The notes beneath the pieces are model-generated. The model worked only from the letters and a program-made list of their open reading frames with translations, did not search any database and was not told the origin of the DNA. The translations under genes and the position numbers were made by a program. A stretch of DNA of 64,000 nucleotides, taken from assembly GCA_050273025.1 (NCBI GenBank), contig CP158635.1:9982001-10046000 (forward strand). The letters run 5' to 3'. The DNA comes from Cenococcum geophilum (lineage: Eukaryota). Shown in pieces: positions 32,301 through 62,570 of the stretch; position 1 is the stretch's first letter, and every line of letters starts with the position of its first letter.

Positions 32301-32460
32301 GTTTATTCGGCAATAATAACTTAATACTCCTTTTGGTGTTCCTAATTATAGTATACCTAGGTTAATTACTTGCTCTTACTGTTATATAGTAGAGGTTTCC
32401 TTAAAAAGACGTTTTAGTTCCCTAGGAGATACTGCGTGGAAGTAGATATAACTCCAATAG
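29400..32460 (+). pseudogene. Patatin-like phospholipase (FabD/lysophospholipase-like) with upstream Cys-rich/RING-like region
   Basis: YLFCCFRTP*YILSYSHTICDIYV*IFG, LKPPTYGIRIFGINSSGIRGVIPLEFL (DGGGxRG, about 30780), FFNIVVGISSS (GTSSG), RATSAA and F*DRGLKYNNL (DGG). Start approximate. Confidence 0.9.
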
Positions 32461-32696
32461 TTATAAAAATGTCTATAGTAATTTACCCATATTATTTTTC
32501 TATCTTTAAAATTTATATTTTATAAAATTATATTAAGAATAAATGTCTATTTATTTTCGTAATAAATTAGGCTAAGCTATAAATAACCTTAGCAAAAATA
32601 TTTTAGAGTATGGCTTACTTTAGAGCACAGCAAATTTAAGCATAAGGAATATTTTCCCCTATTTATTAAAATCCCGTAGGGGATTTAAAGCCATAC

Positions 32697-32905
32697 TTTA
32701 GAATAACCCGTGCTTTAAAATAACCTATACTCTAAAATAACCTATACTCTAAAATAACCTATACTCTAAAATAACCCGTGCTCTAGAATAACCCATACTC
32801 TAAAATAACCCATACTTTAAAATAACCCGTGCTCTAAAATAACCCATACTCTAAAATAACCCATACTCTAAAATAACCTATGCTCTAGAATAACCTATAC
32901 TCTAA
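32697..32905. repeat. 17-bp minisatellite CTAAAATAACCYRTRCT, about 12 copies
   Basis: Directly visible tandem units. Confidence 0.95.
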
Positions 32906-35489
32906 AAGAAGTGCTTTAGGAATATTATTCCGCTAGTATTCGCGCTTAGCATCTAATATATTTCTAGTATAGAATTTATCCTTAAAGATAACTTTATATA
33001 GCTCTTAAATGCAAGGAACTAATGCCTTATAGATAGGGTCCGGAAATTAGCCCTACTAAATCCTTTTACTAATAAGTCCCCTTAATTATATCTTCCTCTA
33101 AAATCAATTATATCTAAATTATAGATAGCTTTTAGCATTAATAATAAAGATATAGATTAGTAATATAGAGCTAAGGGTATTCTTTATAGACATTTAATAC
33201 ACCATCCTTTACTTTACCCGCCACTATAATAAAGAAATATATTACTCTATACTTAGAGGTTAGTACTAAAAACTTAAATAAATAACTATATTTTACTAAT
33301 AATAATTATATTTCCTAATAAATTATTAAGGGTAGTAGTAAAGTAATACTAAAGGTAAAGTAAGGGGCGGCTTTAAAGGGAAAGGACTAAAACTTATAGC
33401 AGCTGGGCCCCTAACTTTAAGTGATAACGCATCTATATTAATTTAAGACATCGTTTTAGAACGCGGTCTTTAATCCTATAACTCTATTCCTCTTTTAACT
33501 TATTTTTAGAATTTAGCTCTAAAGACTGCCTAATAAGTAGGGAAGGTCATCTAAGGGAATTTCTATAGTATAGGATCTGTTTTTTTCGCGCCTAAGGACT
33601 ACTAGGAATAATTATTCTCTAGCATTTAATGTGGCTCCTAGTCTTGCTTTAGGATTAGAGGCAGAGTTTAATAATTAAGAAAGGTTATTTAGAGGAACTT
33701 CTATAATATAAGACCCGTTTTTCTTACGCCCTAAAATAACTAGGAATAATAGTTCTTCTAAATTAGTATTAGAATTAGAAGTGGAGTTTAATAGCGGTTT
33801 TTAGGTGCAGTAATTATATATAGGGGATGACTTGTGTATAGATAGGGAATGGTAAGTCTACTAGAGATAATACTTTGTAGCGCGCTTTAAGTTTAACTAA
33901 CTGCTAATAGGCGTTAATAGTTGCACTATATGCTTATAGACATTATTACCCTTACCTTTATTATCTATATCGCCACTACTATTGTTATAGTTTTTGGCTT
34001 TAGCTAAATCGTTAGTAGGATTATAGAGAACTTAATTTAGATAGTTACTAATCTTACTATAGGGTAGTGTAGTGTTACGGGGAGAGAAGTGCTAAAGGAA
34101 AGGGCTAGTAGGTTACGCAGTGGAGGCCGCCTAGTTATTAGTATGGTTATAAAGGTTAAGGATAAAACTAGGAGAAAAGGTTTTATAGAAGGGTAATTTT
34201 TATTACTTTATAGGCCTAAGGTTCTTAGAATTATTAGAGCTGTAATTAATGTTTTTTAGTTACTTAAGCTAATTAAGTCTCTGCTTCTTTAATATTAATA
34301 ATATACTTTTTAAGTTTATCTTCTTACGCCCACCCTTATTAGCTAATAGGTTATCTATATTTATATTTATTAGTTTAAGGTCATAGTAATTACAGTCTTT
34401 ATAACTTACTAGCGCCCTCTACTTTTTTAGCTCCTAAAGACTCTTAACTAGTAACTAATATTATAGGTTCCTAACTAAGCTATAGAGTGGTTCTATTGCA
34501 ACGGCCGTTAGTTAGGTTGTTGCTATCTAATAATATAGGTCTAGTATAGCTGCGTATAGGTATATAGGAGAGCTCTTCTAGCGCTTCCAATGAGGGTAAC
34601 TTATTATTATTATCGCTACTATTATTTCCGTAATCTTTAGCTTTTAGGTCTAAGTTAGCTACGCTATCTTTAATAACTATTAGATCCGCTACTACTTATT
34701 AAATATATATAGATACTAGAAAATGATAGGAAAGTGCTAGGATAAATCACTTTAACTGCTTCCCCTACTGCTACTTACATCACAGATATCTTTATTCTCG
34801 CTATCCCCGTTATCCTTATTATTATTCTTCTTATAATTATATTCGGAATCTATAGACGCTTTATTAGGCGGAATATCTAAATTAAGGCCCTATATAGAGT
34901 AGAGTACCTAAGAGTAGTAAAGCTTAATACGCCTTAGGATTGTCTTTTGGGTAAAAATAAAGTCTATTAGACTTTCTCTAAAGTATACCCACGCTTATTA
35001 TTAGGGCTATAGGTTGTATAATACTAATAAGGGGCTTTTAGCTTTTCTTAAGTAGTAGTATAGAAATTAATTAAATGAAATTTCTAAAGAGAAACAGTGT
35101 TCGTCGCTATTGCTTAAGGGGAATTATAGGATTTTAAAATACGCGCTAGTCCTGCCTTCGCCGCTAGCTTTCGCCCGTAGCTTAGACTTCTTAACTAGCT
35201 AAGGCATCTAATGCATGCCGTTCGCGGGGTAAAGGTTTGTAATAGCCTAGACCTACCGCCTAATTAACACCTTTAGCAAATTACAGTTAGAATAGCGCCC
35301 CGCCTATATAGCTAGAATATTTAGCTCTAATAAGGCTGTTATATTAGTATTCCTTAATAAATGGCAACGCTAATATGTCTACTTTAACCTAACAGAATTA
35401 ATCTCCTGTGTTAATTGTTAGCTAGATATAAAGCCTAATATACATACGCGTCGCTAAATATCTATAATAGAAGGAGATAGTGTCTTTAT

Positions 35490-35915
35490 TAGTAGTAAGC
35501 GGAGCCCCCTAATACTAACTACTCTAATATACCTACCGCCTATATTAAGTAATTTAGACCTACTAGCAGCGAGCGGGGCTCTTACTCTAAGACGCCTACT
35601 ATACGCATAATTATCAAATAATTTAAGTATGCTAGTGGCTCCCTACTAACCCCTCTGCTACTAACACGCCTACCCTCCCGCATTATTAAGTGATTTAGAC
35701 CTACTAGTAGCGAGTAGAGCTCTTAAATGCTGATTGCTCTGTTACTAGCACGCCTGCCGCCTATGTGATTAAGTAACCTACTAGCGGCGAGCGGGACCCT
35801 CTAATATTAATTACTTTATTACTAGTATATCTACTAGCTATACTGAGTAATCTAAACCTACTACGCAGTAAGTGAGGCTCTATTAAGTAACCTAAATATA
35901 TTAGTAGTAGGCGGT
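35490..35915 (-). repeat. Degenerate ~70-80-bp tandem units (CTACTAGCAGCGAGCGGGGCTC core on +)
   Basis: Cores at about 35491, 35560, 35701, 35778 and 35858; the reverse complement aligns with the 15.6-kb array. Confidence 0.72.
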
Positions 35916-36949
35916 ATAGAATACTACGTAATGCTCACCCTCCTAATATAGACTAGCTGGCATTAATCCTTTATAGTTATATACTCCGACCTAAAAGACC
36001 AGACCTTTACCGCTTAAACGTCTCGCAAGTAGTGAGGTAGCTAGATAATCCTTTACGCCTAAGCCTGTAAACTATACGGCGTCCTTAAAATGCCCGTTTC
36101 AATACGACCGTATAGGTAGATAGGTATGCGTATATAGCTACCTAGAATGCTACTTATGAGGTCTGGTTTTAATAGCCTAATAGGGTATAGCTGCTTAGAT
36201 ATTTAGCTAGGTTTCTACTAAATAACCTAGTAGTATATCCTTATAATGTAGGCGGCTTTAACTATTAGCGGATACTAAAGCTGTTAGCTCTATACAATGC
36301 ATTTTAGGGGAAAAGAGCGTGTAATTGAATTGTATAATATATACTTAACCTAATAGAGAAGGCAGGGCAAGGCGGTACGCCTATCTATCCCTACCTGGGA
36401 AGGGTATATAAACGACTACAGAGTAGTCTTAATTGGGAATTAAAAGAAGAGAGGTAAGAGAAAAAGTAGAATTATAAGGATATATACGCGCTAAGAGGAT
36501 AGAGGCAGCATTAAAAGAACTTAATAAGCGTTAGAAAGTTGCTAATACTAAAGGCTAGAGTTAGGAGAGGCTAAAGAAAAGGCTATAATTAACTGTATTA
36601 ATTATTAGTTAAAGATATAAAATAGATACTTATATATATATTAGCGCTAAGGGGCGAATATATTTTAATACAACGGTGACGAGTAATAAGAAGAGGGGGA
36701 GGCGCGGTATAAGAAAAGATAAGGATAAGAAGAAAATAAGGCCCTTTAAGGTAAAGGTTAGGGGTTTTAGCGGAGCTAAGGTTTGCTAAGTTCTTACAGA
36801 CTAACCACTCCTTATTAACGAATTCTCTACTTTATAGGGGATAGCTATATATATATACTTTCCCTACCCTATAACCAAATTCTACTATAGGGCGTCTAAT
36901 TTATAAGATAATCCTTATATAAGATAAACTTCGCGAATATTATCTCCTC

Positions 36950-39500
36950 TATGTTACTATCTTTTAGCTAACTTTTACTTTTAGAGCTATTCTTCTTTCT
37001 TAAAGGAGGCAAGTAGAAAATAACGAAATTTGGCTTAAAAGATTGTTAATTAATTTCTATTTAATAATGCTAGATTAGCTAGTATTATAGTTCCGCGTTA
37101 ATATCTATTTCCTTTTTTATTACTTTAATCTTTACTAGCATTTAATTTCTTCTCTTCTTACCTATTTTTATATCTCTTTCTATCTCTATATATAATTTAT
37201 TAAGCCCTTTTTTTAGTATTTCTAATATACTGTCCTCTAGATATTTATACTCCCCTAAACTATTAAGGAACCCTTTTAATATTTCTTTAGCGTCTTATAA
37301 TACAATTTTAGGATCTCTATGCCCTATTAATATTAGAACTACTTTAGTACTACTATACTAGAACTTACTTAGATTTATTCTTTTCTTTTCCCTATTTTTT
37401 TTTTTATTTTTATTTTATTTTTCTTCTTCTCCTCTTTGTTCTTTTTCTTCTTTACTTTCTCCTTTTTCTTCTTTTCCTTTTCCTTCCTCTCCTTTTCCTT
37501 CTCCTTTTCCTTCTTTTCCTTTTCCTTCTCCTTTTCCTTCCTCTTCTTTTCCTTCTTTTTCTTTTTCTTCTCCTTCTTCTTCTCCTTTTTTTTTTCTCCT
37601 TTTCCTTATCCTTTCCTTTCTTCTCTTTTTTTTTTTTTTTCTTTCCCTTTCTTTTTTTAGCTTTTTTTCCTTTTTCTAATTCTATTAGCTTCTTATACTT
37701 TATTACTAGGGAATTTTTCTTACCCTTTATTACTTCCCTGTTCTTATTATCTTCTTTATTATCCTTATTATCTTTTTTATTATCCTTATTATCCTTATTA
37801 CCCAAGTTATCTAAGTTATCTGAGTTATTTAAGTTGCTGTCCTCTTCTTCCTCTAATAACTTATTTAATAAGGAGTTGTCCTTATTATCCCTAGAGGAAA
37901 ATAAGCCTAAGTTGTCCTTATTACCCTTATTATTTAAATCTAAGTCACTATTCTTTTCCTCCTCTAATAACTTATCTAATAAGGAGTTATCCCTAAAGGT
38001 AGAGTTATTAAAGTCATCCTTAGAGGAAGACAAGTCTAAGTTATTTAAGTTGTCCCTAAAGGAAGATAAGTCCGAGTTGTCTAAGTTGTTTAAGTTATCC
38101 CTCTTTCTAAATTTCCTCTTACTTATCCGCTCCCCCCCCCCTACTAGCATCTATTACTTTCTAGTATATTTTAGTATACTGTTAAGCTCTAGTTACTTTG
38201 CCTTTTTCTAATACCCCTCTAATTCCCTATTAATAAGTCCTGATCCGTATTTATTATATAATATAGTCCTTAGGAACTACCTCTTTATACCCTTTACCTT
38301 AATATATATAGCTATAATTGGCATATTAGTATAATGGGGTGCGTTATTTTTAACTTTTGAGAAGATATAACCTTTTAGGCTCAATTCTCTGTCCACTAAT
38401 ACTATACCTTTAATAGCGATGCTTATAAAGGGGACATCCTTAATATGCTTCTTTATGCCTTTTATAATTAGCTTAGAGTATTTATCCTTATAGATTTGTA
38501 AAATCCCCTTATTAAATCTTCCGCTTATAATAAATATATACCTTTTATAACTATTAAATATCTTTAGATGCTAAATTAAGAGCTAATAGCCGCTATAACC
38601 CGCCTCCTACTAGCCCCTAAGCCACTACTATTAGCTATCTAATAAGACTCGACCTCGCTTCTTTGTCGCTGCTAAAGGTTTAAAAGTTTTATTAGTGTTA
38701 TCTTTGGTAGCCTTTATATAATCCTTCTTTTTCCCTTTCTTCTTCTTTACTTTCTTTTTTCCCTTCTTCCCTTTCTTCTTTTCCTTTTTCTTTTCTTTCT
38801 TCTTTTCCTTCCCCTTTTTCTTCTTCCCCTTATCTTTCTTGGCTTTTTTCTTCTTTATAGATAGGTCTAATTATAAAAACGCCTACCGCTCTACCTGCCA
38901 TCTTTTAAGAACATCATTATTAAGAGTAAGGGTAAAAGGAAGAAAGTTTAGAAGATCCTTTCTTTGTTCTCTATACTAGGCTGCTAGTAATTTAGTATTA
39001 ATTATATCTAGGTAGTTTTTTGCTATCCCTATACCAAAATTATCTAGTTCTCCTTTTATTATATATATAAGTATATTTCTTAAATCCTTTAGTAATAGAA
39101 GAACCGTCCTATAACAAATAGTGCCTAAGAGTTTATGGTAGTTGTGTGCTTTATTATATTTAATAGCTTTTTAATTTGCTTTTCTTAGGTTATTAAAAGC
39201 TGTAAAGTTGTTTCTAATAACGACTCGCCAAAAAATAGGAACTAACTTTTTATTTTAGTGGTTAGTATAAAATTCGCTAACTTAATTGGGATTAAAATCA
39301 TTATCTTTTATTTCTTAATCTCCGTCCTTATCTGTTATTAAATCTTATAGCGCGGTTAAGGACTTACTATAGCTAAACCCGTTATCTAGCTCTGGCCTCT
39401 TTATGCCTTTTTTTTACTATTAAAAGGATAGTTAAAGTTAATCGGACCCTTCTTAGGGGTTTAATTCTTTATTTCTTTAACATATTCGCTTAGAACATTA
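36950..39500 (-). pseudogene. Unassigned gene relic with long acidic (D/E/S) and K/E-rich low-complexity tracts
   Basis: Polypurine tracts on the minus strand at 37380-37680 and 38720-38860. DNLNNLDNSDLSS repeats are consistent with RIP-altered DDSDDS. No domain recognised. Confidence 0.4.
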
Positions 39501-42500
39501 AGTTTTTTAATAACGTTTATAATAACTATATAAAAGTTAGTTGTATATTATATATATATTAAACTCCATACTTTAAAGAGCCTTATTGCTATTATTTACG
39601 CCACCCTACTTTAGATGTACTTTCTATACTACTTTCTACTACGCTTATATTTTCTAAGTAGGACTTAGGTTATCGCCCTTTTTAAGTTAAATAAATTTTA
39701 GTGGACCGGCGTTGTTATTACTCTACTTAAGAATTTTGTTAATCTTATTCTGGCGTATTTAGTTTTCTTATTTAGGTTTAGCTGGTTCTTTAGCCCTATC
39801 TCCCTTCCTCTATTACTTCTTCTAAAGATTATTATTAGGGAATAAAGTTGCTTATAGAGTAGGGGGCGCGCTATTAGCTATTTTTAATAAATTGGCGCTA
39901 GTGCCTAATGATAAATTTCTAAAGATTTAAATAAAAGGAAACTACCCTTTTATATTTACCTTAATTATATATAGTGGTATATATTTAGACTCTAGTAATT
40001 ATATATAAACACTACTATATATAATTTATGTCTATTTTAGTAAATTAGGAAGGGGTACGGCCTTAAAACTAAGGTAGCGTTTTATTAAATATAGGGTAGT
40101 ATTAGCCCTTTTAATCACGTCTATATAGAGGGTCTTAAATGTACTTAATACGTAATTTAAATTAAATAATTTACTATCTATAGAGGTTGCCTTTATTACT
40201 CGCATTACTAGCAGATCACTATATTATTTAAAAACACTATATTACGGCTAGTTTTAAAGCATAAAGTAGGCAAATATAGATTTTTAAACTATTTAAAGAA
40301 ATATCTTCTAAAGCCTCTCTAACTTAACTAGGATATTAAATCGAGTTAACTAGGATCCGAGTTAATAGGAAATCTTATATAAAGGCGAGGTATAAAATAC
40401 CTAAAAGAGTTTCTTAAGCCATCTTATTATCTAGATGTTACTAAATTTGCACCTACTATAATAAAACAACTACTTTAAGCTTAGCAATCCTTATTTGTTT
40501 CCTTTTATTCTTTAGAATAATATCCTATATTTTAAATAGCTTGTTGGATTAATTTTATTCCCTAATATCTTAAAACATCTTTCTAAGTCATTTAGCCGTC
40601 GCGGTCGCGTGACTTAATTGCTTTCGGTAATTATTAAGCCTCCTTTTTAACTCTTCTCTAGCTTTATGGGCTTCTTATTACTCCTTATATCTCTAATTTT
40701 AAATCTAGGAAATTACTATCTAATTATAAGAAACTTAAGTTTCTAGACTATAAATATATTATATTGTCTATTACTCTCTAATAAAGAAGTCCCTAAAGAA
40801 GTCCTAATCTGAGCGCCTATTATATATCTTACAGTACTAGCAATATCTAGGGTCCTGTAATTATTAGTACTTAAGTAGTTTTTTTCTACTAGAGGTATAC
40901 CGCTAAGCTATAGCACTAGCTTTTATCCTTATAGTTAGTATAATAGGTTGCGTTATTTATATTTTTAGAGTATAATGCAATTCTAGAATAAAGGCTTCCT
41001 ATACCAGTATATAAATCAACATTTTAATTATAGACTACTGCTAATTATAGGTTATGTCCGTTTTACTATAGTATATAGGAGAGGTATAAGTATATATTAC
41101 CCTAGCACGACCGCTAAGCGCTAATTGCTTATTACTAAAAGAAAGATCTATATATACGCGTACGTTTCTACTAAAATTACTATTAAATACCGCCTACCTT
41201 GAAATTAAAGAGCTACCTATTCTAAAATTATGTGCAGCGCTAGATAAAACCGTTTTACGCTACCCTACTATTAACGTTGCTACTTTACTAACTTAAAAGG
41301 GAATGGAATAATAATATAGTTTACGCTAGATCTAGCTTATACCTTCTTGCTAAGTTAATAGCTATAGGTATATAGAACTATAGGGGTTAGGGGAGGAAAG
41401 GTAATTCCTAGTCCTATATTCTGTGTTAAACTATATAATAAGCAAAAAGTTAGGAGTCCTCTCTGCAATTTACCTACTGTATTGGTAGCCCCTTTTTAGT
41501 TTACTTGCTTATATCTAACCTTATAGCTACTTTATAGGCGTGAGAGAAGATTTACTATTTAAACTTTTTTAAGCTTTTAGTTCTTCCTAGGATTTTAGTT
41601 CTTCTTAGGATTTTAGTTTAGGCATTTCTACTATAACTTAATTACCGACTTTATTTAAGGTAAACCGGTAGTCTTTCTGTTAAAGGCCGTTATAAGCTTA
41701 GACTAAAAGAGAGGGGGTAGTATAACCTAGAGTTTGCGAAGAAGGTTTTTATTATTTAGTGACTAACCCTCTAACTAAGTAATAGCCTCTATAGTAGATA
41801 ACTTTATAGGTAATAAGTTAAGAAAATAAGGGGTTAAATTGCGAGTATCTTAGAGGACGGTCTTTTAAATCTACGTTCTAAATTAAATAAATATTAATTA
41901 GTAAGTTTTTAAGCTAATGCTAGAATACTAATAGAATGGTAGGTAGTAAAGAGCGGCGTAGGCGTAGTAGGCGATAATAGACTATATATATCTACTAATT
42001 AGCTAGCTACTTTATATAGCTCCTAGTGTAACCAGCTAAGCGCTTTATACGTATTAGCTTCTAAAGAATAATTGCTAGAACTAACTCTAGAACTTACGCC
42101 TGTAGCATTACTATCTAAAGTTAATTAGGCGTTTTACGCCTGTAGTATCGCCGGACTCTTTATATATTACGAAACACTATAATTAATTAGGCGCTCCGCG
42201 AAGTTCGACCGTTAGCTAGATTGCCTTAGGCGCTCTATACTTACTAAGCGCCAGGGTTTCTAACTTAAGGCAGCATTAACGCTAGAAAGATACCTGGCTT
42301 TATAATTACTTAAAGATAAAGAGCACCTACGCAGCAAGACTAATATCCTTTTACTTAAACTTTATTAATCCTTTTTTACGAGGCCGTATCCTATTATAAC
42401 TAGCTATAACTCTCTAGCGGATAATAAATACTAGGAGAGAATTATAAATAAAATTCTAGAGATAGATTGGGGTTTTATTAAAATCGATTCTCTTAACCTT

Positions 42501-45082
42501 AATAATATTTAGTTTTTAAATAACCTAGATATAGCTACGCTGTAACACTCCGATATATTCTAGCAACCTTTTAGCTAGGGGGCTATACTAGAATAGCTAT
42601 AGTTTAATTAGGGAGTTTAGAATAAGTAAGGATATTAGCCTAATCTAAATCTAGGCCTTATGTGCATATATATTAGCCTAGAATTATTAGCTGAGACCTA
42701 TATATTAATAGGTTCTAAGCTACCTAACGTCTATATACTAGCATAAGAGCTTTAGAAAAAGTAAGTTTTGGATTATTAAGAAAAATTGCTTTACTAATAT
42801 TGCTTAGACAAGAGCTAATAGCTAAGTAGGTAAAATTAAATGGATTACGTCTTTATTTAAACTAATTATTAATAATAGACGGCTTAATTATCTTAACAAT
42901 TATATAGCTAAGATGCAAGTATAGGCATTCTCTATTAGTACAAGAATTAGGGAGTTAAAGGAGGTATTAAATAGTGGAAGTAATGGTGGTAAAGGTTAAT
43001 AATTGGCTAGGTACCGAAATTTGGTACTAGATATTCTAATAGAGTTTTAATATATAGCTTTTATAGTACTTTTAAAAACTTATTAATCCCTCGTTTATAT
43101 CACAAAGCCTTTTCCTAATAATAAATAGCAACTTTCCTCATTAAACGGCATTCCCGCTACAGTTCTGTAATTTTAATATTTAAATTACCAAGCCCTTTAT
43201 TAACTCCGTTGCTCTTCTACTACTCTCTTTTAGCTTCTATATTCCGTAGTTCTCTTATACCTAACCCTTAACTTTTAATTTCGTGGGTTAGATATTTATA
43301 GGAATTAAATTCTTTTTAGAAACTATTAGCTTATATTAAATAGTATTAGTAGTTTTATACCTCTATAGTTTTAGTTCTTACGGCTCTAATAGTGTTTCTA
43401 ATACCTAAGTATAAATCCTAATACGCTATAATAGAATGTTTGCTTAGGTGTTTTTTAAAGAGGTATTATTTCTTAGGGGTTAGCTGCTATTAGTAAGGGT
43501 CGTTATCTCTAATAATAAGCCTTACTTTATTTGGGGAAATAACTATATTAAGCTCGTCTTCTACTTACGGCCTAAGTAGATTACTTAAAATAAAAAGATG
43601 GCTAATATATTTAAATATTGCGCTAATTGTAAACGGCACCACTATCTCCATCGTACTCTTTATATATTTTTTTATGCTTTATTTTCCTAGTAAAGTTTTA
43701 GAGAAAAGTTTGCAATTATATATAACTATACTAAAATTAAAATTTCTATTTTTAGCATCTTAATTCTCTTATAACTTTTACTTTAAGTAAAAAAGTGCGC
43801 TAGAAACCTCTTTATATACCTTATATAGAACGCGATTAATACTCCCTTTAGGGTCATTTCTTCGTTAACTATAAACTTAGGTTTTTATGGTAAAATAACC
43901 GCTCTCTTTACTTTCCACCAAAATATAGCGTTTAACTTAAGTGTGGTATGCGCGATACTAAACAGATATGCTAGTTAACCAGTATTGGCTTTATGGAAAG
44001 TCTACTTTATTTAACTAGCTTGTCTAAAGTTTGCTAAAGTAGCGGCAAGCTATAGAACTCGCTTTTATTGGATATAACTTATTATATAGGGTACGGCATA
44101 GCCAGTTTAAAAAATAGCGCATTATAACGAAAAGTTATTAGGAAATAGACCCCGCTTTTCTGATGCTAAACCTATAGGGTAAGCGGTAGTAATATAGGTG
44201 TAATAGTCCACACCCAATTTTCCAGCCTAGCATTGTCTTATTATTTATAGCAATAGCAATACTATACGGGCTTTATTATGGCCTTATTAATCCCTTTTAG
44301 TATCTTAGTTTAGCTTAATCTTAAAATTTTTATGTTACGTCTTATAGGAATAAGTTTCTTAAGTCCGCCGAATTGTACTAGGGGTGGTCTTCGCTTTATA
44401 GGCATAGCGGGTTTATATACTATGATATAGAGCTAGGCTACTAAAGACTACTAGTAACTGTAGTGAGGTTAAACTTTGTCGTTTTATGTATAGAGGTCGG
44501 GGTATTTATATTATCCAATTATTCTATATACTACCCCTATCTCTTTAGAAGTTAACTATTATATAAGATTTGCCTAGAGCCGCTAGGGCTAGTATGTATT
44601 AGCATTGTAAAAGCTTAGTAACCTTAAAGCTAAGGAAGTAAACGCTATCCTATCCATTTAATCTAGAATTGATCTTTCCTAAAAATAGAAAAAGTCCCAG
44701 CCACTTTATACGGCAACTCTTTTATATAATCCTAACGCTAAGCAATTTAGATCCTATATCTTAGCCCTTTCGCAGGCTAGCTATTGCTAGGACAATCTAG
44801 GAAATTTTATGTAACTATACCTCGATGCAGCTTCTAAGATTGAGGTGTAGGGCCTATACGCACTCGCTTCTCTCCTACGCCTAAGAATAATATTATAATA
44901 GTTGTGGTTATAGCAAACTCTTCTAAACTTACTTAAAGCTTTTAAACGCTTAACTTAAGTACGTATAGTCCCCTTTATTATACCCCTATTAGCACTAATT
45001 TAAGCATAGTCTACTTAGCCTAAAGGGCTTTAACTTAGGTTAATTATTACAAAGCTATAGAAAATCATCTCTTGCCTTAAGC

Positions 45083-46260
45083 ATGCCAGCCTTAAATATG
45101 CCAGCCTTAAGCAGAAACGTAAGAGAAGTGCTAAACTTTTAGTATCTATAAAGGCTAGAAGAGATAAAGCTAGAGAAGAGCCTAATAATAGACTGAAGGA
45201 GTCTTGTAAATATTAGGAGTATATAGGTTCTAGCTGATTTAATACCATTAATATAAGCTATCTTATATAAATAATTTAAACAATTATAAAAAGAGATCTA
45301 GCCTTATGGAAAATTAGCTATTTTAAAGTCTTAGTTCCGCTAGACGCGCTCTCTACTTACTTAAAATCTATAAAAGGCCAAATTATAGGGAAGTATAGTG
45401 CTCCCTTAAACTTCAATTATGCGGCTTATATAATACGGCCTTTGCGTACTAAGGAGGTTATAAACTATACTATATGCAACCTTATATACCAGGCATCTTT
45501 CGATTAATAAGAAGACAAGTTTAGGATCCCGAGGATTCTTTCTTATTAACCGTCTACCGCTACGAACCTATTTTGCGCTACTAAAATCCAGAATAAAACC
45601 CTCTCGTACTTAATTTATTTTACCTTTATTAGTAAAGAACGGGAAACAATTAGTTTAGGTAATAAGTCACTTTTTAACTATAGGACTTAACTTAATAAGA
45701 TAAAGGCAAAGATCCCTAGGATATATTTACTATATGTATATATTAGTGGTTCTTGGAATACGCTAGCAACTATATATATAGAAGATGCTGGACTTAGCTC
45801 TATAAATCTTGTTTACGCTAAAGCCCCTAAGTCTTAGTTAATAGTCTCCCCTAACAATACGTGCCAGTTAGAAGATAGAATTAAGGAGGTTTTTAGCTTT
45901 TAAAAGCGAAAATCGAACTCTAAGGTATAGGAGTTAGCCTACTCCTAATTTATCCGGTATATAGATCTTATGCTATATAAGGAGTTGCTTAATCTCTGGC
46001 ATATTCGCTACGAAATTACCTATTACTAGCCTAGGGAAATGGTTATCACGTTACCGTATATATATTATTAAATTTTAAATAATGGAGTTAATATTACTAA
46101 AGCTATTAACTTCGCACTTAAGGAGGATTAGGAACCTCCTCCTAACTATTAGTTCTATAGCAGAAAATATAGCTAGGCTTCTATTACGGAGAATGACCTT
46201 AGTATTATTAGAGGCGGGCCGCCTAAAAGGTAGGTTAATTTATACATGAATCTACCTTTA
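45083..46260 (+). pseudogene. JmjC-domain protein, KDM4/KDM5 (histone demethylase)-type; domain about 45700-46120; gene may extend to about 47.4 kb
   Basis: IPRIYLLYVYISGSWNTLATIYIEDAGLSSINLVYAKAPKS*LIV ... S*FIRY ... Y*PREMVITLPYIYY*ILNNGVNITKAINFA. Compare KDM4 [23 protein letters not shown] ... FLRH ... [28 protein letters not shown]. Both His ligands appear as TAT (RIP of CAT). Confidence 0.9.
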
Positions 46261-48271
46261 CTAATTCCTTTAGCAGCAATAACTACCCAAAAATTAGCGC
46301 CGTTTGAGGGAATTTAACTGTCTTTGCCCTTATAGAAGGAAGCGCTAACGTAGAGTATATCGCCCTATTATTATCTAAAAAGCAACGCATCTCTTTAAAC
46401 CCTACTATTAACACGAATATTTTAGACGCGTTGCGTTATAATTTTTAATAATTAACGCCCCCTATTCCAATTCTGTTCTCCTAATTTAATAATATAGTTA
46501 TTACTTCCGGCCTTTCTCTTTTATTTATTATACGGACAATATAGCTAATATTTAACTATATAACTGCGCGTATTATTATTAATTTATTATAGGAATCTCA
46601 GAGCAAGAGTAAATTAGTTAATTCTGCCGATAATAAGGTTAAGAATATTTATCGCATCCGCGCCTATATTTGAGATATAAGGTAGGCTGAAAGTAGGATG
46701 TATAAAGGCGTCATATAAAGGCGAATTAGTTAAGTTAAATTGCGGGAAAGCTTTAACTCCTATATCTAAGCTAAATCAGCTATCTTTTTGGAAAGGCGTA
46801 AAAAGAGCTAGCCGTAAAATGATGTTGTTCCTAGTAGGAAAGCCTAGGACTATATTTAAAATAACCTAATACTTAAGTTATTTAATAGAGATTGGAAAAT
46901 TCTAAGAGGCACTAGAGATTCTGCCGTTAGGATGTTTAAGTATAACCTTAAGGTTGGCGCAATTCTTAAATTATTCTGCTCCGTCTATAGTATTTAAATT
47001 TTATCTTTCCTCTCGTCTATAGACGCAGAGCCCTAGCTTCAGTTTTTAAAAGCAAGCAATTACCTATAGTTAAAAGATCTTACTAAAGCAATTGTGCTAT
47101 TAGAGTAAGTCCTTAACTAATATCTATCTTAAGAAGCTAACTAGCTTAAGATATAATATAATGATAAAACGATAAGCATAATTCTTTATTAAGTGGCTTC
47201 TACTTCTCCGACTTAACCTTAAACGATTAGCTGAAATTAATGGCGATTTACTTAGTAGTAATATATTTTTAAATAAAAGTATATATCCTTTTATGGCGTA
47301 AGACGAGATTAGTAAATAAATTGCCACCTTAGCTATAGAGCAAGAACCACTTAATACTTTTTTTAGCTTTTTCCGTAGTAATTAAGGTAGTATTACTATT
47401 TTATATAATTTAGGAGAAGCGTCTCTTCCGATTTATTCTACCCTCTTATGACGTCGCTACTATAGTTAGATGCTACTTAGCGCTCTAGACTTTAGTATAT
47501 CTAACGCGCCTTTAGTAAAACCTAAGAGCCTCCCTTATATTTAGTAGCCTACTTTTATAAAGCTAGGTATCCTTCTAAACTACCTTATATTTGCGTCCTA
47601 TTTTAGTTATTCTTTCCTCTATAATATCGTTAATCTCCTATTTGTTATTTAAGATTATTTTATTAATTTAGTTATATATCGCCTGGGAACCCTATAGGTG
47701 GGAATTTAGGTAGCATCGCTTTATCTAATTAGTGGCGGAGCTGTTATACTCGCTATTATCTTTATTATACGGATCGTAGGGGTTTAAATATAGACTAGTT
47801 AGTTTATTTGTCTTACTCGGCCGGTATATACTCTTATTGTCTAAGTCTTCTAGAGTGATTTTGCCGCTTTAAATATCTAAAATAGCCTTATTGTCGTTAA
47901 CCTAAGAAATACGCATTCTAGATGTTTTAGGGTAGGAGCTTTTTAAAAGATAATCCTAGACAATATTTCTTAATAAAGTGTTTAATAAAAAGTAGATAAA
48001 AAGAGGGTTAGAGGATATTTAGCGCTTATAGAGTTCTTATCTAGCTTTTTAATTCTAGAGCTAAGCTAGCTAATATATATAAATGCTAAGAAAAAATATA
48101 TAAGTAGGGCGTCTAAAGATTAAAAGCCTAATCCTTAAGATAATTTTAGTATTCCTATATATATATCTCTAGCCATTATTTTTAGAACTTAAGACTATAT
48201 TTAATGAAAATTTTCTCCCTAAATTATAAAAATTAAAATAGCCCTTATACCCTAAACTTAATACTAAATAT

Positions 48272-49205
48272 ATATACACTTCTCTTTTTTGTTTTACGCG
48301 CGGTTATAGTAGTATACTATTAATCTCTAGAAGTAATTACTAAGTAGGTAGATTATAGTTACTGTAGAAATCTAGTCCTAATAAATTATAGTGTTAATTA
48401 GTCTCTTTTAATTAAAGTTAGGGCGGATATACTAGTAACTATGCCTAAAGGAGGCGAGCTTAAAGTAGACGTTAAGCTTAGCGTTAAGATTATTGCGACT
48501 ATATCTCCTATTATAACTTCCTTATCGCCAATCTATACTGTCTAAGTCGGTACTTAGGGAGATCTAATATTTTCCCTAAATTAAATATCTGTGCCTATTA
48601 GAGATATTATCCACTTTTAGTTTCTTAAACTAAACTATACCGTATTATAATTCTTGCTTAAGAATCCGTGCACACCTAATAGGATTTTTAATACTAACTT
48701 TCTCTATTTTAACCCTAAGAACTATATAGATAATATTATTTCCTTTTTTATCTAATATATAAGTCTATAATGGTTTTTCTACAAATAAACGCTATTAGTT
48801 TTATATTGCCACGCTAGTATAGTCTTTGCTATTAACCCTAGGCCAAATATAGAAGAATTCCTTTGTAATGCTTATTTGCTATAATTTACCTTATAGATAA
48901 GTAGTGTTATTGGACAGTTAACCACAAAACCGAATGCTAGGAGTAGCTATTAGTAAAAAGGAATTACTGGTATTAGCCCGGTTAAGATAGCTAAAAGTTA
49001 TTAGATATTAATATTATTTCCTATAAACCTAACTAACCTTAGAGGGAGTTATTAGATAGGAATAGGTAACGCTAGTATCCCTAATAGTACTGTCTTTTAA
49101 CCTACCCTTTAGCCCTAGCCCTTAACTTAACTAGTAAATAGCGGGGGAATTTCTCTTCTACCTTTTACTAGTCTTTTTATATTATTAACTCTTGCTTTTA
49201 TTTAG
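48272..49205 (+). pseudogene. Extracellular Ser/Thr-rich cupredoxin, probably GPI-anchored
   Basis: IYTV*VGT*GDLIFSLN*ISVPIRDIIHF*FLKLNYTVL*..LKNPC (NHTV.QS....PC) and WFFYK*TLLVLYCHASIVFAINP (WFFC.Q...HC.AGMVFAIN). Hydrophobic C-terminal tail ends TAG at 49205. Confidence 0.85.
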
Positions 49206-50868
49206 TAGTTTAGTAGGAATTTTATATTCTTATTTATATAGTCTAGTAAACAGAAGTCTTATCTATTTTCTTAGCCTATTATATTATACTTTTCTAGTAG
49301 CCTTGCAAATCTTATCTAAAGCGTTAATAATTTATAAGTTCGCTAATTTAATCTCCTAAACTCTCTTATAACCTCTTTTTAAGTTAACTTCCTTTTTACT
49401 CTTAAATTAAAAAGAAGAGAGTCCTGCCGATCTATTATATAATTCTAGAGTATTATATATTTACAAGGGGATAGCATAGTCTAAGGCTAATGAGTTAGGT
49501 TCTCTAAATGGGGCTAATAAGCGTTTAATAGTTAATGAGACTTAAATAGTAGTTTAGAATAAAGATAAGTTTGGAAAGAGTTTAAGATATAACTAAGGTA
49601 TAGAAGAGGATTATAGTATCTCTTTTTCTAAGTAGATTAAGAAGGTAGAGCTTAAAGAGATAGTGGGATAAGTAATAGAGGTAAGATTATTATAATTTTA
49701 GTAAAGTATAGATAGGAATTATATAACTTTTACTACTTTTAATTATAGTTTAAGACGTCTAACGTCTCGGAATAAAAATAAACTTAGTTAACTCTATATA
49801 TATATAATAATAAAAATAAAATATAGGGCATATATATACGTCCTTAAAAGACTTTAACTTAAAGAATTAATTAACTACTTTACCTTAAAGATATGTATTA
49901 TTATAATATTTTTATCTAATCCAAATTGTACCATCTAGAGGACTTTTAGGAAGATGCGTAATTAGATTTAGAAAATTAAAGGAGTAGATAACGCTATAGA
50001 ATATTCTAAGCCACTACCTACCTATAGGTACTATTTTCTCCCCCTTTAACTTATATTATAGACTAATATATAATAGTAGCTATATAACCCTTAATAGGCT
50101 TAATAGTGGCGCATTAAGGCGTATATTTAGAACTACCACTATTAATAGGGAAGGTAAAGAGGATACGCTAGATAGAGCTATACTAGAGGGAACTGCGCTA
50201 GAGGTGTTTTAGAGGGAGCTATGGTATAGGCTACGCTAAGCCGCGTTAGATAAGGTTATATTAGAGGAGGCTAAGATTAGAACTTTAGTATAGAGCTAGG
50301 CTTTATATATTAATTTCTATAGGTTCTACCTTATCTTTCTAGTAATATTAACGGTTAGGTTAGGTTTAAAAAATAAAGCTAAAACTAATCTAAAATATAA
50401 TTTTAAGGCTTAAACTAGTTATAAAATTAGGTTAAACCAGATTAACTATAGTGTTTATTTACATATTTTAGTGTACTTTTTGGCCTTAGTAAAGGCTAGC
50501 CCTATTTAGATTGCAGCGCCCGTCCTTATAAGGTAGGTATTAGGAATATAGGCAAGTTGCCGTTATATATCGCCGCGGCACTAGCGTAGTAAGGAGCCTT
50601 AAGCTTTTTACCCTTTCTTAAGTAAGAGAAATATAGAATAATAATTATTATACTACCTATAACTTGTAGATACGTAATATCACCTTATATTACTAACAGT
50701 AGGGCTTAGTAGGGGCTTATAATAAATATAATTCTAAAAAAAACCTATAAAAAAGTCTTTAGTATTTTATTTTTAAATATAGATTTTATTTTTATATATA
50801 GGGATTTATTTTTAGATTAAAGAAAAAGTATATATACTTTCTTTATTCTTTTACTAAAACACAACACT

Positions 50869-52695
50869 ATAGAGATTGCTAAGATATATACTCTTGCCGC
50901 GGGCGGTATTCTTATAATATTCTATATTTTTAGGCTTCTATCTTTTCTCTCTTGTTTTAAATATCGATTAGTCTATATATTTATCCTTAACTATCTTATT
51001 TACCTGCGAATCTACTAAGGGTTATATTTTACTATACCACTCTCTAGGTATTAGGCCTTAATCTAAGTAATATACTAGTTGGGAACTATTATATGCAATA
51101 TTCTTGGCGTATAATCTCTTTCTAATGCTGGCTTAAGAGCTAGAACGCTTGCAATTATTAATTTTATGCCTCTTCTTTTGGCAAGTCCCTTAGGCCTAGT
51201 AGCTAATATTATTAGTATATTATTATGGAGCTATACGCAGCTTTATGGCTTAATTGCTATTATAACTATAGTGCAAAGCATTTTCTACTTTTTAGTTATT
51301 TTAGCATAGCGGAATTTTTCTTTTAAAAATTCCAGCCATTTAACCGGATTTTTGGTTTATTATAATCTAAATATTTTAGAAAGTAACTAAAATATATTTA
51401 GGCTTTTGTCTTATTAACCTAGCTTGTACTTTTCCCTTACGTTTAAAGGTTCTACTACGAAATTTTTCTAAAATCTTACTATACTCTTGCAGTCTTTATA
51501 GGGCTTATAATATTATAATATATAAATCCTAGTACTAGCCTTAATTAAATCTATCTTATTACGGCACTTAGTCTCCTTAGAATAATAACAGTGCTTCGCA
51601 CCTTATAGATACTTTACTGTAATATCTAGTTTAGGAAATTAGGAGTAAATACGGTATTATAGCACCTCTTGGATGCCTTATACCTTTTAATTACACTTAC
51701 CTAGCTATTAGACTTCCGCGCCGGCTAATATATTTAACTTTGGACCCCTAGTATAAGCTTCTAGTCGTTTACGCAGATATACCCGTTTATAATTACGTGG
51801 TAGAACGAAGATAGGATAGAGATTAATCTTTTCCTAAAAGAATATAGCCGATGAGGATTTATCTATAAATTAGTTTATTAAAAAGAAAATAAGTTTTTAA
51901 GCTAAGTTAACGGACCTTACGGATTACCTCCTAGGCTAGGTAACTTTAAAACGGTAATTTTAATAGCTAAAGGTATTAGAATCGCGGCACAGCTACTGTA
52001 TATTAGGGAGGTTCTTATAGGCTACTAAGATCGCATAATCCTTATAAGAAAAATAGTCTTAATATAGTAATATTATAATCTAAGTAAGTATATACTAAAT
52101 TCTACTAGAGATTATAAGCTATAATTTTTATTTTAGGCTATAAAGACTAGGTAGTACAAAGAATAAATAAACTAATTAAGTTGGATAGCACTTTTATAAG
52201 TAGACTTACTCTAGTTAGGCTATTAGTAGTCTAATTAACTAAGTTCTTAAAATTCTTTATTTTAACTTAATAAAGAAGGATAGCCCGGAGATTATTAAAA
52301 GAAAGTCATCTATTAAAATTAAAAGAGGCTTTGCGAATATTCCTAAATTGCTAGCTAAGCAATTTAAGTATAAAAAGGTGGTTAAGAGATTTAAGAGTGG
52401 GGAGGGAAGAAAGTAAGTTAAAAATAAAAAGGTGGTTAAGAGATTTAAGAGTAGGAAGGGGAGAAAGTAAGTTAAAAATAAAACTATGTAATTAAAGGGT
52501 CGGAAGGGAAGAATAATAATAATAAGTATAAAAGTAACTCTTCTACTTATATCTTATTCTAATAAATATAGTCTTTAGAAATACCGGCATTTAAAATAAG
52601 ATATAAGACTTTATCCTAGCCTATAGGGCGTATAGTATTAAGCTAGTAAACCTTAAGTTTTAACTAGTAGAGATATATAAGCTAACGCCATTATA
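50869..52695 (+). pseudogene. Ferric reductase / NADPH oxidase-like transmembrane protein (FRE)
   Basis: AGLRARTLAIINFMPL, YEIFLKSYYTLA, DFRAG*YI*LWTPSISF*SFTQIYPFIITW (FAD-binding HPF), VNGPYG and VILIAKGIRIAAQLLYI (NAD-binding GxG). Contains a 54-bp tandem duplication at 52370-52480. Confidence 0.88.
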
Positions 52696-53899
52696 AGCTA
52701 ATTTAGAGAAATCACGATTGCAAGCTTAGAAGGGAAATTTTAGGTATTAAAATTGTAAGCTAAAATATATAGAATAAATGGAGGAATTGGAACTATAGTA
52801 GAAGCTTTAGAGGATTAAGAGGAAATAAAATTGTGTTGGATTTACCCTTACCGCCTACCCCGCTTCCTAATAGCTTTAGTATATAATAACAATTTAGTTG
52901 GCTTCTAATATCCCTTAACTTTAGCACGCTTTTAAGCTCGCCTTTTAGAGATCTGTGTGCTCCTTTAAGGAGGGGGTTATTCTAGAACTATAGCAGTTAT
53001 AAAAGTACTTTATTAAATTATTGCGGTAAGCGTAACGTGGTTCTTAAGAGCGGCATTCTTTTTTCGTCCACCCTTAGGCTTTTTATAAGTTTTGGCAACC
53101 CTTAAGCAGTCCGCTATTGTATAAGCTTCGCTAGTATGCGTATTAGGACTTTGTTAACGCATTTAAGTGACCCTTTACTTAAGGCGATTACATATTTGTC
53201 GTTAAGGGATTACTATAGGTAGAGGGCTTACTTCTAGATTTTTTTATCGGTCGATAGCTGTCGGTTTTAAGCCCCAGCTATTATCCCAAATGCCCTCTAC
53301 TTTCTACCACTTTGCTACTCTCTTTATTGCTAATTTCTTAATATCTAAACTAGTTTTGCTAAGTCTCCCTTTAATATAGTCATTGCAAAGCCGTTCTTCC
53401 TTATTAAATTAGTCTTAATTAAATCGTTAATTAGGGCGTACTTAATAGGTGTTAACGGCGTATATAGGCTTAGGGCTAGGGCTATAAGTTAGCTCTTCTA
53501 AGTAATATAGGGGTGGTAGATTATTAAGAAGATACCGTCTATACTTTAGATCTTATAGATTAATCGCTTTAAGAGTACGTTAAATTTAGGTAAGAGAATG
53601 TAACATTCTAGTACTTCTTAGAGGTAAATAAAATATAGGTAAAGGGATAAAATAAAGGGATAAAAGCGGATAAGATGCGGGATTTAGGTGAGATGGCGTG
53701 ACCCTAAGTGGTAAATATAGGGCAGGGACCTAAAGCGCTAGGATATAGCTATAGCAGTATACTACTACGCCCGCTGTGCTAGAACTAAGAATAATAACAT
53801 TATAGCTTTTTCCAGAATAAATAACCTTACGCCTTATATAACCCACTCTTTATTTAGCTTTCTTACTACCTTAGATATACTTGGTGTGTAAGATTATAT

Positions 53900-55660
53900 A
53901 AGCTTTATTAGTGTAGAGATAATAGTGCTGTGCCGCTTCTTAGGTAGTACGGCGGCCATTATTATAGTAAAATTAACGGCACTGCACTTAAATCTAGAAA
54001 GCTGTTTATTATTAGTCCTATAATAAGCTTTTCTAAAAATAATAAATTTGTAATATCTATGCCCTCGGCTATTATTACTGTTTATATTAAAGCTAATAAA
54101 TATAAAAGCGGAATAAGTAGTTTAAGATCTACTTAATCGTTATCTAGTGTCCCAATTACTAGATAATGCCCTAGGACTAGATATTAGCCCGCTTCTTAAC
54201 TTACGCTCTTTAGAATATCTTACTATTATTAGACGTTTAGATTATAATATAACGGTTTAGGAACCCTAAATCTTTAGGCTTTAATACGAGTTCTATATTC
54301 TTTAAAGTGGAGCTATTTTTCTTTAAGACTATAGCAGCTAATACACTACCTAGATCTTAGGGGCGCGTTTTACCCCCTTTAAGGCCGGTCGCAAGCGTAA
54401 GGTTATTCTACTCCCTACTAGAAATACTAAGATTAGAATAGGTAGCATAGCTTTAATACTAGTTCGGTTTAAGTTTCTCTAGCATAGAAATAATATCCTA
54501 AAAAAGTTAGAGACTTAGCTTAGTAACTTATCTAAAAGGGTAGAGGACCCTAGGCTTACGCGGATAGTTAAAGAAGTGCCGACCGTTCTACTATCTCGAT
54601 AGATAATAAGAATCTATACTCTTATAAAGGCACTAGGGATGCGATATAAAACCCTATAGGGTATTGGCAAAGGCTAGTTTAGGGCGGTTTTCCAAGCTCT
54701 TAATATAGATTTTGGTGCGTATATTATAAAAAAGTCAATTCTATTAGATAAAGCCGATTTAATTCATATTAAATAAGAGGTTAAGACTATTGCATATCTT
54801 ACTTATATACGTTTAATCTCTTACAATATATAGTTGTAATAATTTTTATCTATACTAACTTTTTCTATAAATATATATTGTTAAATATATATAGTATAAG
54901 ACAACTACTAGTGCGATTAACATATTTACTAAACTTATAGATAGTTTATTAAATAATCTCCGCGGCTTAAGCAATACCTACTATTATCCTATCGCCTTTA
55001 ACTACATCCTCCACGCTCTTAACTATTTAGATTAGAATTTATTTATTTATTAGGATATTAAACCTACTAATATTCTCTATAAGGCCACTACTAGTAGCCA
55101 TTACTTCTAGCTAGGGGATTTTGGCATCTATAATAAGGTAGTATTTATAAAAACATATTATGGTATAAGCCTTTATATAGCACCGGAGGTTTATACTAGG
55201 GGAAGGTAGTTAGTAAAGGCTAACGTCTAGTTATTAGTAGTCACTATATTTAATATAAGAGATAAGTATAGGTTCTATTTAAGATTAGAGGCTCTTTATA
55301 CAAGATTAAATCTTAGGGATCTATCTTAGTAGGCATCTTAACAAAATATATTTAATATTGTTAGAGTTATAGCAAACGAGACACTATTTAAAGACTTAAA
55401 AGCGATGGTCGCTTTTAGTCCCCTATAACGCCCCTTAGCAGCTTAGTTACTTTTATAAGCCTAAAAGCAACTTTAGAAGGCTGCTAAAGTTTAGGAGCCA
55501 CCTTAAAAGAAACTAATTAATACTAGTGTTGAAGTAAAAACTAAAATACCTACTAAACTAGATATAGCACAAGTTATATAATAAGGGAGAGTCGGCCTAT
55601 CTTTATAGGGTATATTAAAAGGCAAAGTTCAAAAGGAAGACATTTCACTATATCTTAGTT
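53900..55660 (+). pseudogene. Ser/Thr protein kinase with a possible FHA-like N-terminal region
   Basis: GIGKG*FRAVF (Gly loop), EVKTIAYL, IY*DIKPTNIL (HRDIKPxNIL), LGDFG, YIAPEV and KANV*LL. The FHA-like part (*IFRL*YEF) is tentative. Confidence 0.85.
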
Positions 55661-55689
55661 AAGAGCCATTTACCTATTTTATTTAAATA

Positions 55690-56880
55690 GTTTGCTTCTA
55701 TATACACTTATCCCTTATATAGTAACTAAGAACTATTTTATACCTTTTCAATCTCCAAACTATTAAGGAATATAGTTTGCTCGTAAATAGCATCTTAATC
55801 CCCTCTTAATAGGTATATTTTCTAAAGGCTAGCCTTTTAAAGTGTTAAGCGATAATTTTTAAGGAATTTTAGAAGAGTTTCCTTAGTAATAGTCGCTCGC
55901 TAAAGAGTAAAAGACTTAAGGTATAGAAAGCGGACCCTCTTAATGCTTTTAAGAATTAGAGGACTAGCATTACTAAGAAATTTAAAGAAGAAGCCTAAGT
56001 TAAGGACTTAGATATTTTCCGCAGCTAATAGGAAGTTTATAGCTAATTATATGTCCCTTAGCTTTACGCCTTTCGGCAATAGTTAAGGATAAATATCGTT
56101 AGTACGGATTGTGATTTAAAGAGTAATAAGGGTTTAAAAAGCCAGTTTTAAACGCTTAAATTACTAACCTAAAATTGTATAAAAAGCTGCAAGGTTGACT
56201 CTATTGTCTAAAGTATTAATATTAAATTTAAATAGATCTAGCTTAAACTTTAAGATTGGGATAGGGTAAGTAGTTAGTGTAGTTAAAACGGTTTTAAAGG
56301 TTTTAATAACATCTATATTCTATTTAGCGGTAGTCTGCTAATAAATAGTTATAATACCTTAACTAGGAGTTTGATCTAATGACTTAGGCCTATAGATTTT
56401 AACTTGACGCAGGTTTAAGAGGTTGCGTAATATAACTAAGAGAATTGCACTTTTAAATCCTAACCTCTTAGCATATTCTTGGTCGTTATATAGGATAGTA
56501 AACTAACACTAATCTTATATTATTAGAGGGTTATTATATAATTCTTTGCTTAATAGCCAGACCTAAAGGTCCTAGTTTTGCTTTAGCTGTTTAGTTCTAA
56601 ATCTAAAAGTCTATAGGCGTTTAGTAAAGGGTCCTTATAAAATTTCTAGTAAGGTTTTAAAAGCTAGTCGGGAAAGCATAAAGCGTTTAGTTATAAAGAG
56701 ACTACTAAAATAATTAAAGCAGTAATATTTAACTTGTTAGTATATAAGTTAGAGAGCTGCTACCGCTTCTATAGGCAGGAAACTAAGTATTTTTTTAAAA
56801 AGTTTAATAGGTAGATTAACAATTATAATAAAATAGTTATTATTTCTTACATTATTATGCTAGAAGTCCCTACTATTAAT
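55690..56880 (-). pseudogene. F-box protein with a C-terminal LRR-like region
   Basis: IVNLPIKLFKKILSFLPIEAVAAL*LIY*QV (F-box LP.E....I...L.......LRL.C) near the N-terminus. FLYLKSFTL*RATITKETLLKFLKNYRLTL*KASL*KIYL near the C-terminus. Confidence 0.72.
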
Positions 56881-62400: not shown

Positions 62401-62489
62401 TACTAAGCATATTGCTAGCTAGGAGCGGCTTTATTAAGGATTATACTTCTATTTACTCTCTTATATACCTCCTATAGGTGTAAAAAGCT

Positions 62490-62570
62490 AGAGTTTAGTT
62501 AGAGTTTGGTTAAAGTCTAATTAGAATCTGGTTAGAACCCAGTTAAAACCTAGTTAGAGTCCTATTAGAA
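62490..62570. repeat. Degenerate 11-bp tandem repeat (AGAGTYTRGTT)
   Basis: About 7 visible units. Confidence 0.65.

Follow-up and report, generated by a model that had tools for sequence, protein, structure and literature searches.

Did a fungal Starship carry a chromatin-erasing enzyme of its own, and what could such an enzyme have done for the element? The question is raised by a broken JmjC gene in the window, by which we mean the whole 64,000-nucleotide stretch of Cenococcum geophilum contig CP158635.1 analyzed here and to which positions refer unless otherwise labeled.

A JmjC gene carried by a Starship

The JmjC gene is Starship cargo, as a sequence-only reading of this DNA had proposed, and the proposal now has direct support in the element ends, the captain, and five full copies. 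The element occupies 7951..64000 on the plus strand, with its 3' end beyond the window at G000:C1:10059733 (window-equivalent 77733), and measures ~63.6 kb when a nested retrotransposon is excluded. Its 5' end (7951..7978, plus strand) comprises a direct repeat, TTTACT (7951-7956), and a 17-nt imperfect terminal inverted repeat (7962-7978) that differs in 2 of 17 letters from the one at the 3' end of copy G. Of the 10 regions read, 8 have the identical 5' junction, every one next to a different flank, and TTTACT stands at both ends of five copies, with a one-letter change in one 5' copy. Five copies with both ends, on three contigs and between different flanks, measure 63.7, 63.7, 69.8, 72.9, and 89.8 kb, with nested insertions in the larger ones. 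The window element is colinear with six other copies and 91% alike. Seven of nine JmjC copies in the genome are colinear, each following its own captain at a distance of 28-51 kb; the remaining two lie in fragments, with no captain within the 50 kb read. A further copy of the 5' end, on C6, shows no JmjC match in its 5' part, the part that was read.

The captain, a tyrosine recombinase (DUF3435) broken by RIP, is the first gene, ~1.1 kb inside the 5' end and on the same strand (Pfam-matched part 9059..10460, plus strand; E = 1.4e-13 and 3.8e-71). Behind it lie a fungal protein kinase pseudogene (12699..13640, plus strand; PF17667, E = 9e-43) and a DUF3723 auxiliary gene (20911..28723, minus strand; PF12520, E = 3e-38 and 5e-11), the latter split into 20911-21675 and 28112-28723 by the nested insertion. 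That insertion (21770..27983, strand unassigned) resembles an LTR retrotransposon, has 218-nt terminal direct repeats that are 96% alike, and is absent from all siblings. A Pfam scan of 35 candidate cargo frames added two broken kinases (54871-55425 and 58314-59243, both plus strand) and a broken MADS-box (SRF-TF) gene (57169-57603, minus strand), while FRE-like (50713-52121) and patatin-like (29300-32457) frames were recognized by eye only and have no Pfam match.

A mobile counter-silencing module of the JmjC gene and a Myb/SANT gene had also been suggested. The sole Myb/SANT candidate that we found is a weak Myb-like segment (16996..17118, plus strand) with no Pfam match in the window and a below-cut-off one in sibling L044 (PF13921, E = 0.077). 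Given the weakness of this domain and its distance of 28 kb from the JmjC gene, we reject the module.

In ends and genes, the level at which we compared them rather than captain against reference captain, the element resembles the TTAC-end Starships (Phoenix / Hephaestus): it has a 5' captain, DUF3723, a TTTACT direct repeat, and a short inverted repeat. The target TTAC(N7)A, as given in PMC10104507, is echoed by an A eighth after TTAC in three of the five 3' junctions here. Unlike those Starships, every copy read here is a RIP derelict, and JmjC is not one of the four auxiliary families named in PMC11162782.

Several further features of the element and genome deserve record. The element contains an inverted internal duplication (87%; 57878-58133 / window-equivalent 73644-73899) and a direct one (67%; 34665-35068 / 75424-75854). 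Low-complexity tandem arrays give long open frames at 3605-4172 and 5625-6022, outside the element, and at 37348-38211. The genome-wide captain load is very high: scoring 100 of 341 candidates gave at least 165 DUF3435 exon matches, almost all of them RIP'd. The captain at G000:C3:7969165-7970527 is nearly stop-free, its one stop possibly intronic. The term MADS-box occurs 116 times in published Starship tables and may denote an unnamed auxiliary gene class.

Destruction by RIP and the ancestral state

The window copy is a RIP-destroyed pseudogene of the Starship cargo gene. RIP is evident throughout the window (composite index 0.94-1.45 in all 2-kb bins), and the JmjC core that had been called complete sits in an exon 1 with 17 in-frame stops and no frameshifts. 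With stops read as X, positions 45748-46113, in the plus-strand frame that includes 45085, still match PF02373 JmjC (E = 1.2e-7; 32.6 bits against a cut-off of 24), and the remaining two plus-strand frames gave no Pfam match. Both iron-His codons, 45775 and 46066 (the latter previously placed at ~46065), read Tyr (TAT) in the window. The single T>C reversions invoked to restore them do exist in sibling copies: 45775 is CAC in two of nine and 46066 is CAT in two of nine.

The 178-Mb genome (G000) holds nine copies of the gene at 91-92% identity (nine of nine candidates). Each has 14-21 stops in exon 1 and no open reading frame, and exon 1 is gap-free in all. Transitions (C/T or A/G) make up 284 of 290 variable columns in the gene region, with CpA and TpG the most frequent contexts, and 174 of 176 stops across the copies are TAA or TAG. 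Transversions, at 0.0001-0.0009 per site in the seven long copies, are so rare that these copies must have been nearly identical before RIP. Glu 45781 is kept in eight of nine copies, and the H, E, and H ligands occur together in copy L032. The equivalents of Y132, N198, K206, Y177, and N290 are kept in all nine and that of G170 in two; each of the residues for iron, 2-oxoglutarate, the methyl-lysine pocket, and zinc is present in at least one copy.

Stops common to all nine copies number 5 in the gene frame of exon 1, whose other frames have 15 and 34. The captain has a similar share of such stops. The five could be read as marks of neutral debris that was dead before the element moved, and copies in three other DNA runs likewise differ mainly by transitions. 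Such debris is hard to reconcile with the captain's similar share, an exon 1 without frameshift, and ligands surviving in sibling copies. The near-pure transitions, the gap-free exon 1, the ligands in siblings, the few all-copy stops, and the similar pattern in the captain together lead us to conclude that the JmjC gene was very probably intact when the element multiplied.

Gene structure

Exon 1 spans 45082..46229 on the plus strand, and similarity to intact relatives starts at ~45220-45260. The ATG at 45083 that had been taken as the start lies in a different frame from the JmjC match, and neither an in-frame ATG nor a true start codon was found in the window copy. The end once placed at 46260 falls within a probable 44-nt intron (46230..46273, plus strand), which the sequence suggests by its GT..AG borders and a CTAAT branch-like motif, and the gene probably continues to ~47066. 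We therefore reject both boundaries. Splicing out 46230-46273 would join exon 1 in frame to a probable exon 2 (46274..47066, plus strand), whose frame has 4 all-copy stops in 264 codons, where the other frames have 9 and 25.

Within exon 1, a degenerate JmjN-like segment may lie at 45238..45340 (plus strand): tblastn to relatives covers it, and the model of one relative aligns to KDM4A from residue 11. Pfam recognizes no JmjN there or in near relatives. The JmjC core (45748..46113, plus strand) has its iron codons at 45775 (H), 45781 (E), and 46066 (H) and its 2-oxoglutarate codons at 45805 (N) and 45829 (K). A KDM4-type zinc site follows (45940..46170, plus strand), with codons 45940 C, 45958 H, 46156 C, and 46168 C kept in 4, 1, 4, and 1 of nine copies, respectively.

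The distal part of exon 2 shows weak similarity to a helical domain, as yet without a name, that many family members share. A profile of that domain matches the exon 2 frame in five of nine copies (iE 7.5e-4 to 0.015), and among 78 six-frame targets its only other matches are the C-termini of a second JmjC family described below; other seed profiles gave weaker matches or none in this region. Downstream of the window's JmjC gene, no SET or Ulp1-like match was found. The all-helical domain itself, for which a search of Pfam and Atlas names found none, recurs among clade members, in 48 of the 113 C-terminal parts, and has been modeled in P0024 (residues ~417-655).

A KDM4-like active site and a probable KDM4 fold

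Relatives came within reach through a profile built from the nine copies; the broken window protein failed alone, with no match among 391 candidates of a word-index search. At an E cut-off of 0.001, the profile recovered 570 clusters (the best 150 are listed). Named near relatives come from Coniosporium, Neofusicoccum, Lasiodiplodia, Botryosphaeria, Diplodia, and Macrophomina, and wider ones from Colletotrichum, Zopfia, Xylona, and others. An intact relative, P0002, matches Rph1 at E = 2.3e-19, KDM4A at 8e-19, and KDM5A at 6e-12, and KDM4A is the top fold match of its predicted model (pLDDT 81). The predicted model of a second relative aligns best with KDM4A (Z 26.3, rmsd 3.5, 286 aligned) and next with plant JMJ13 (22.4). 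The top fold matches are histone demethylases throughout, in a whole-model search that is filled by the JmjC domain and says nothing on the helical domain.

We take G170, Y177, and N290 of KDM4 to line the methyl-lysine pocket and F185, K241, and D135 to be peptide contacts, and we number the C-H-C-C zinc site on the same assumption. For the iron and 2-oxoglutarate residues and the effect of positions 288/289, we follow the KDM4 numbering in PMC13632499. Counted over 137 divergent relatives, with a few duplicates included and the first His partly fixed by how cores were cut, the iron and 2-oxoglutarate residues are almost universally kept (E190 in 132, H276 in 136, K206 in 134, N198 in 134, and Y132 in 121), as are the pocket (G170 in 132, Y177 in 131, and N290 in 128) and the zinc C/H/C/C (132/135/128/117). 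The product was thus very probably an Fe(II)/2-oxoglutarate dioxygenase with a KDM4 fold, zinc site, and methyl-lysine pocket.

The contacts fare differently. The equivalents of D135, K241, and F185 are Y, I, and A in the window gene, and among the 137 relatives F185 is present in 45, D135 in 19, and K241 rarely, while Ala stands at 288 in 120. The loss of D135, K241, and F185 means that the substrate may differ from that of KDM4. It also speaks for a non-histone substrate, or hydroxylation instead of demethylation, for example of a host silencing or defense protein; the Ulp1-like domain found in 36 of 82 C-terminal parts of relatives would then mark a protein-modifying toolkit. PMC13632499 records non-histone substrates for KDM4 enzymes, and PMC11603075 allows for arginine hydroxylation by KDM4D/E. 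We nevertheless find this reading quite unlikely, given that the pocket (G170/Y177/E190/N290) and zinc site are kept, that some relatives are fused to SET, and that the top fold matches are all histone demethylases. SET and weak Ulp1/C48 fusions in relatives indicate a chromatin role.

The gene had been assigned to a KDM4/KDM5 type. The KDM4-like half of that assignment stands: the zinc site has four residues, and the closest matches, whether by sequence or by fold, are KDM4 enzymes. The KDM5-like half does not. The gene resembles KDM5/Jhd2 in its JmjC core and in Ala at the 288 position. It differs in that host Jhd2 has Q, Q, and S at zinc-site positions that the clade of the window gene keeps, no ARID, PHD, or C5HC2 is seen in that clade, the gene is not orthologous to Jhd2, and matches to KDM5A are weaker. 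We reject KDM5 identity on the zinc site and the weaker KDM5A match.

With KDM4/JMJD2 enzymes (Rph1, Aspergillus KdmA, and human KDM4A-D), by contrast, the gene shares the fold, perhaps with the JmjN position, the H-E-H triad, the Y/N/K 2-oxoglutarate residues, the methyl-lysine pocket, and the C-H-C-C zinc site, as well as its best sequence and structure matches; like KDM4D, it has A-I at 288/289. It departs from them in belonging to a separate clade, in lacking the PHD reader that host Rph1 has and a Pfam-recognized JmjN, in being mobile and multicopy, in its unnamed helical C-terminal domain, and possibly in its substrate.

A divergent clade outside Rph1 and Jhd2

In a 160-row tree, Rph1/KDM4 and Jhd2 fall outside the 142-row clade that contains the window gene (SH-aLRT 99). 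A 52-row subset tree recovers the same branch at 100/100 and rejects a grouping with host Rph1 (AU p 0.0004); in both trees, the composition of the copies is RIP-skewed and the exact sister group is not placed. Identity to host Rph1 is 24% (41/172), and the host genome has five JmjC genes free of stops, some of them Rph1- and Jhd2-like (names assigned by inspection). The window gene is KDM4-like, not KDM5-like, and yet neither Rph1 itself nor a captured host copy of it.

The tree and identity data lead us to reject a recent capture of host Rph1. Considered jointly, a recently captured host demethylase and the neutral debris discussed above are very improbable, although no intact close relative was found: among the best 150 of 570 clusters, which are those listed, the closest full-length intact match is ~37% identical in the core.

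By sequence, the JmjC gene belongs to a large, fast-evolving fungal clade, some members of which bear SET or Ulp1-like fusions. Among 63 of the best 150 matches that were scanned, SET occurs in 6 (5 above cut-off), C48 in 7 (1 above cut-off), and JmjN in 4. The remote Ulp1/C48-like domain noted above is fused to JmjC in P0005, P0007, P0022, P0075, and others.

JmjC-SET fusions at L128, L130, L131, L133, and L135 are in conserved order with CIA30 and Sos7, and this eraser-writer fusion looks like a settled host gene. The sequence-only reading had held that its proposal would fail if homologues were ordinary single-copy host genes; the window gene is no such gene, but one JmjC-SET sub-clade is. 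Fungal JmjC-SET proteins fall in the same divergent JmjC clade (one relative is named "set-domain histone methyltransferase-8" in its source); they differ from the window gene, which has no SET, and their best-sampled sub-clade is syntenic, not mobile.

This clade also contains a second JmjC family in the genome, likewise RIP'd, with four copies, at G000:C5:10307722 (L008), C4:19502700 (L018), C7:4840815 (L017), and C6:12072156 (L016). The second family has 60 of 185 core residues in common with the first. It lies in another large repeated element, in which two compared copies are colinear over ~49 kb and which holds genes related to the FRE-like and MADS genes in the window, together with TPR-, BTB-, and kinase-like frames recognized by eye. 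No captain was found for this family in 80 kb around one copy, in 50 kb around another, or among the captain matches listed.

JmjC genes on other Starships

JmjC-labeled Starship cargo is already in public tables, unremarked there. In Table S7 of PMC11162782, JmjC labels at least 38 rows and at least 33 Starships in seven genera, out of ~585 classified. Across Tables S7/S9, a family is given for 31 of the 33: Arwing for 15 (of 63 Arwing rows counted), Galactica for 8, Prometheus for 4, Enterprise for 2, and Voyager for 2. The annotation behind these labels was automatic, a few of them appear mistaken, and Fusarium oxysporum accounts for 18 of the 33 elements. The word "histone" is absent from the main text of that paper, and no JmjC match was found in the supplements of three further Starship papers (PMC12256816, PMC12289983, and PMC12153272). 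We found no published discussion of JmjC on Starships, in a search that was thin on subscription journals.

The published JmjC cargo may belong to the same clade as the window gene. A broad-alignment search returned five proteins, with no Fusarium or Pyricularia names among them, and none of the accessions from three relative clusters (30 proteins) appears in the published Starship table. One Macrophomina assembly has near-identical copies of a relative, spread over three contigs. No Starship marker was found in 13 of 25 metagenome loci scanned (87 open frames of at least 150 aa; 6-21 kb each); six of these 13 loci have the JmjC-SET fusion, and five adjoin CIA30 or Sos7.

Possible functions of the enzyme

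By analogy with KDM4, the product would remove methyl groups from histone H3 lysine, K9 or K36; demethylation of one of these is its most likely activity and, in our estimation, a probable one. The helical C-terminal domain may, speculatively, target the enzyme. Such a demethylase could hold off repressive methylation, leaving captain and cargo still expressed after insertion. That this was a Starship-borne chromatin demethylase relieving repression of the element's genes, cargo included, has a little under an even chance of being correct. We hypothesize, with the chance of being right well below even, that self-protection is the likeliest reason for an element to keep such an enzyme. Doubtful, too, is the broadest form of the proposal, that Starships of several families repeatedly carry an unrecognized KDM4-derived demethylase clade, some members SET/Ulp1-fused and aimed by the helical domain, to stay out of heterochromatin.

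Self-protection is favored by the presence of the second JmjC family in another repeated element and of JmjC in five or more Starship families. An anti-silencing role of the JmjC gene is weakened by the RIP that struck all nine copies and the captain, by the sub-clade that is a syntenic host gene, by the absence of Starship markers from all 13 metagenome loci scanned, by the loss of the KDM4 peptide contacts, and by the weak, distant Myb candidate. The JmjC gene gave no protection from RIP. RIP is set off by repeats, in the sexual cycle, and because it belongs to that cycle, RIP'd copies leave a vegetative effect possible.

The self-protection logic resembles that of VANC, the transposon-encoded anti-silencing protein of plant VANDAL elements, in that an element-borne factor would strip repressive marks from its own element. 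VANC is DNA-binding and no dioxygenase, however, and for the window gene the anti-silencing role is only proposed.

An active histone demethylase could instead have been ordinary accessory cargo that retuned host or accessory-region genes and had no bearing on the element's own silencing. The element does hold several regulators (kinases and a MADS-box gene), the JmjC-SET sub-clade is a settled host gene, every copy was struck by RIP, and JmjC marks only 33 of the ~585 Starships listed from PMC11162782. We think this account unlikely, as this genome has two separate JmjC families, both carried by repeated elements and neither with an intact member found elsewhere in it, JmjC recurs in five or more Starship families in the same source, and Macrophomina has its near-identical copies on three contigs.

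Arwing elements offer one indirect lead for self-protection, confounded by transposon content. In a 2026 Pyricularia preprint (10.64898/2026.01.28.702382), Arwing elements are low in H3K9me3, a state that goes with low transposon content (10% versus 52%), and some carry heavy H3K27me3. The two JmjC-labeled P. oryzae elements listed from PMC11162782 are both Arwing, but of the six P. oryzae Arwing rows, four are without a JmjC entry. The blast-fungus KDM4 orthologue, according to PMC13601938, alters H3K9me1, not H3K9me3.

Implications for Starship biology

The window copy is dead, and its value is as a pointer to the clade. The same preprint leaves unclear whether Arwing mobility results from chance escape of silencing or from an avoidance mechanism of the element's own (10.64898/2026.01.28.702382), and recurrent KDM4-like cargo is a concrete, testable candidate for such a mechanism. 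Self-protection, if true, would mean that a eukaryotic transposon encodes a catalytic chromatin eraser, and it would supply the missing mechanism for euchromatic Starships. Even without self-protection, a large, partly mobile clade of fungal JmjC proteins that is distinct from Rph1 and Jhd2 and has its active site complete would mean that fungi swap chromatin-modifying enzymes via transposons.
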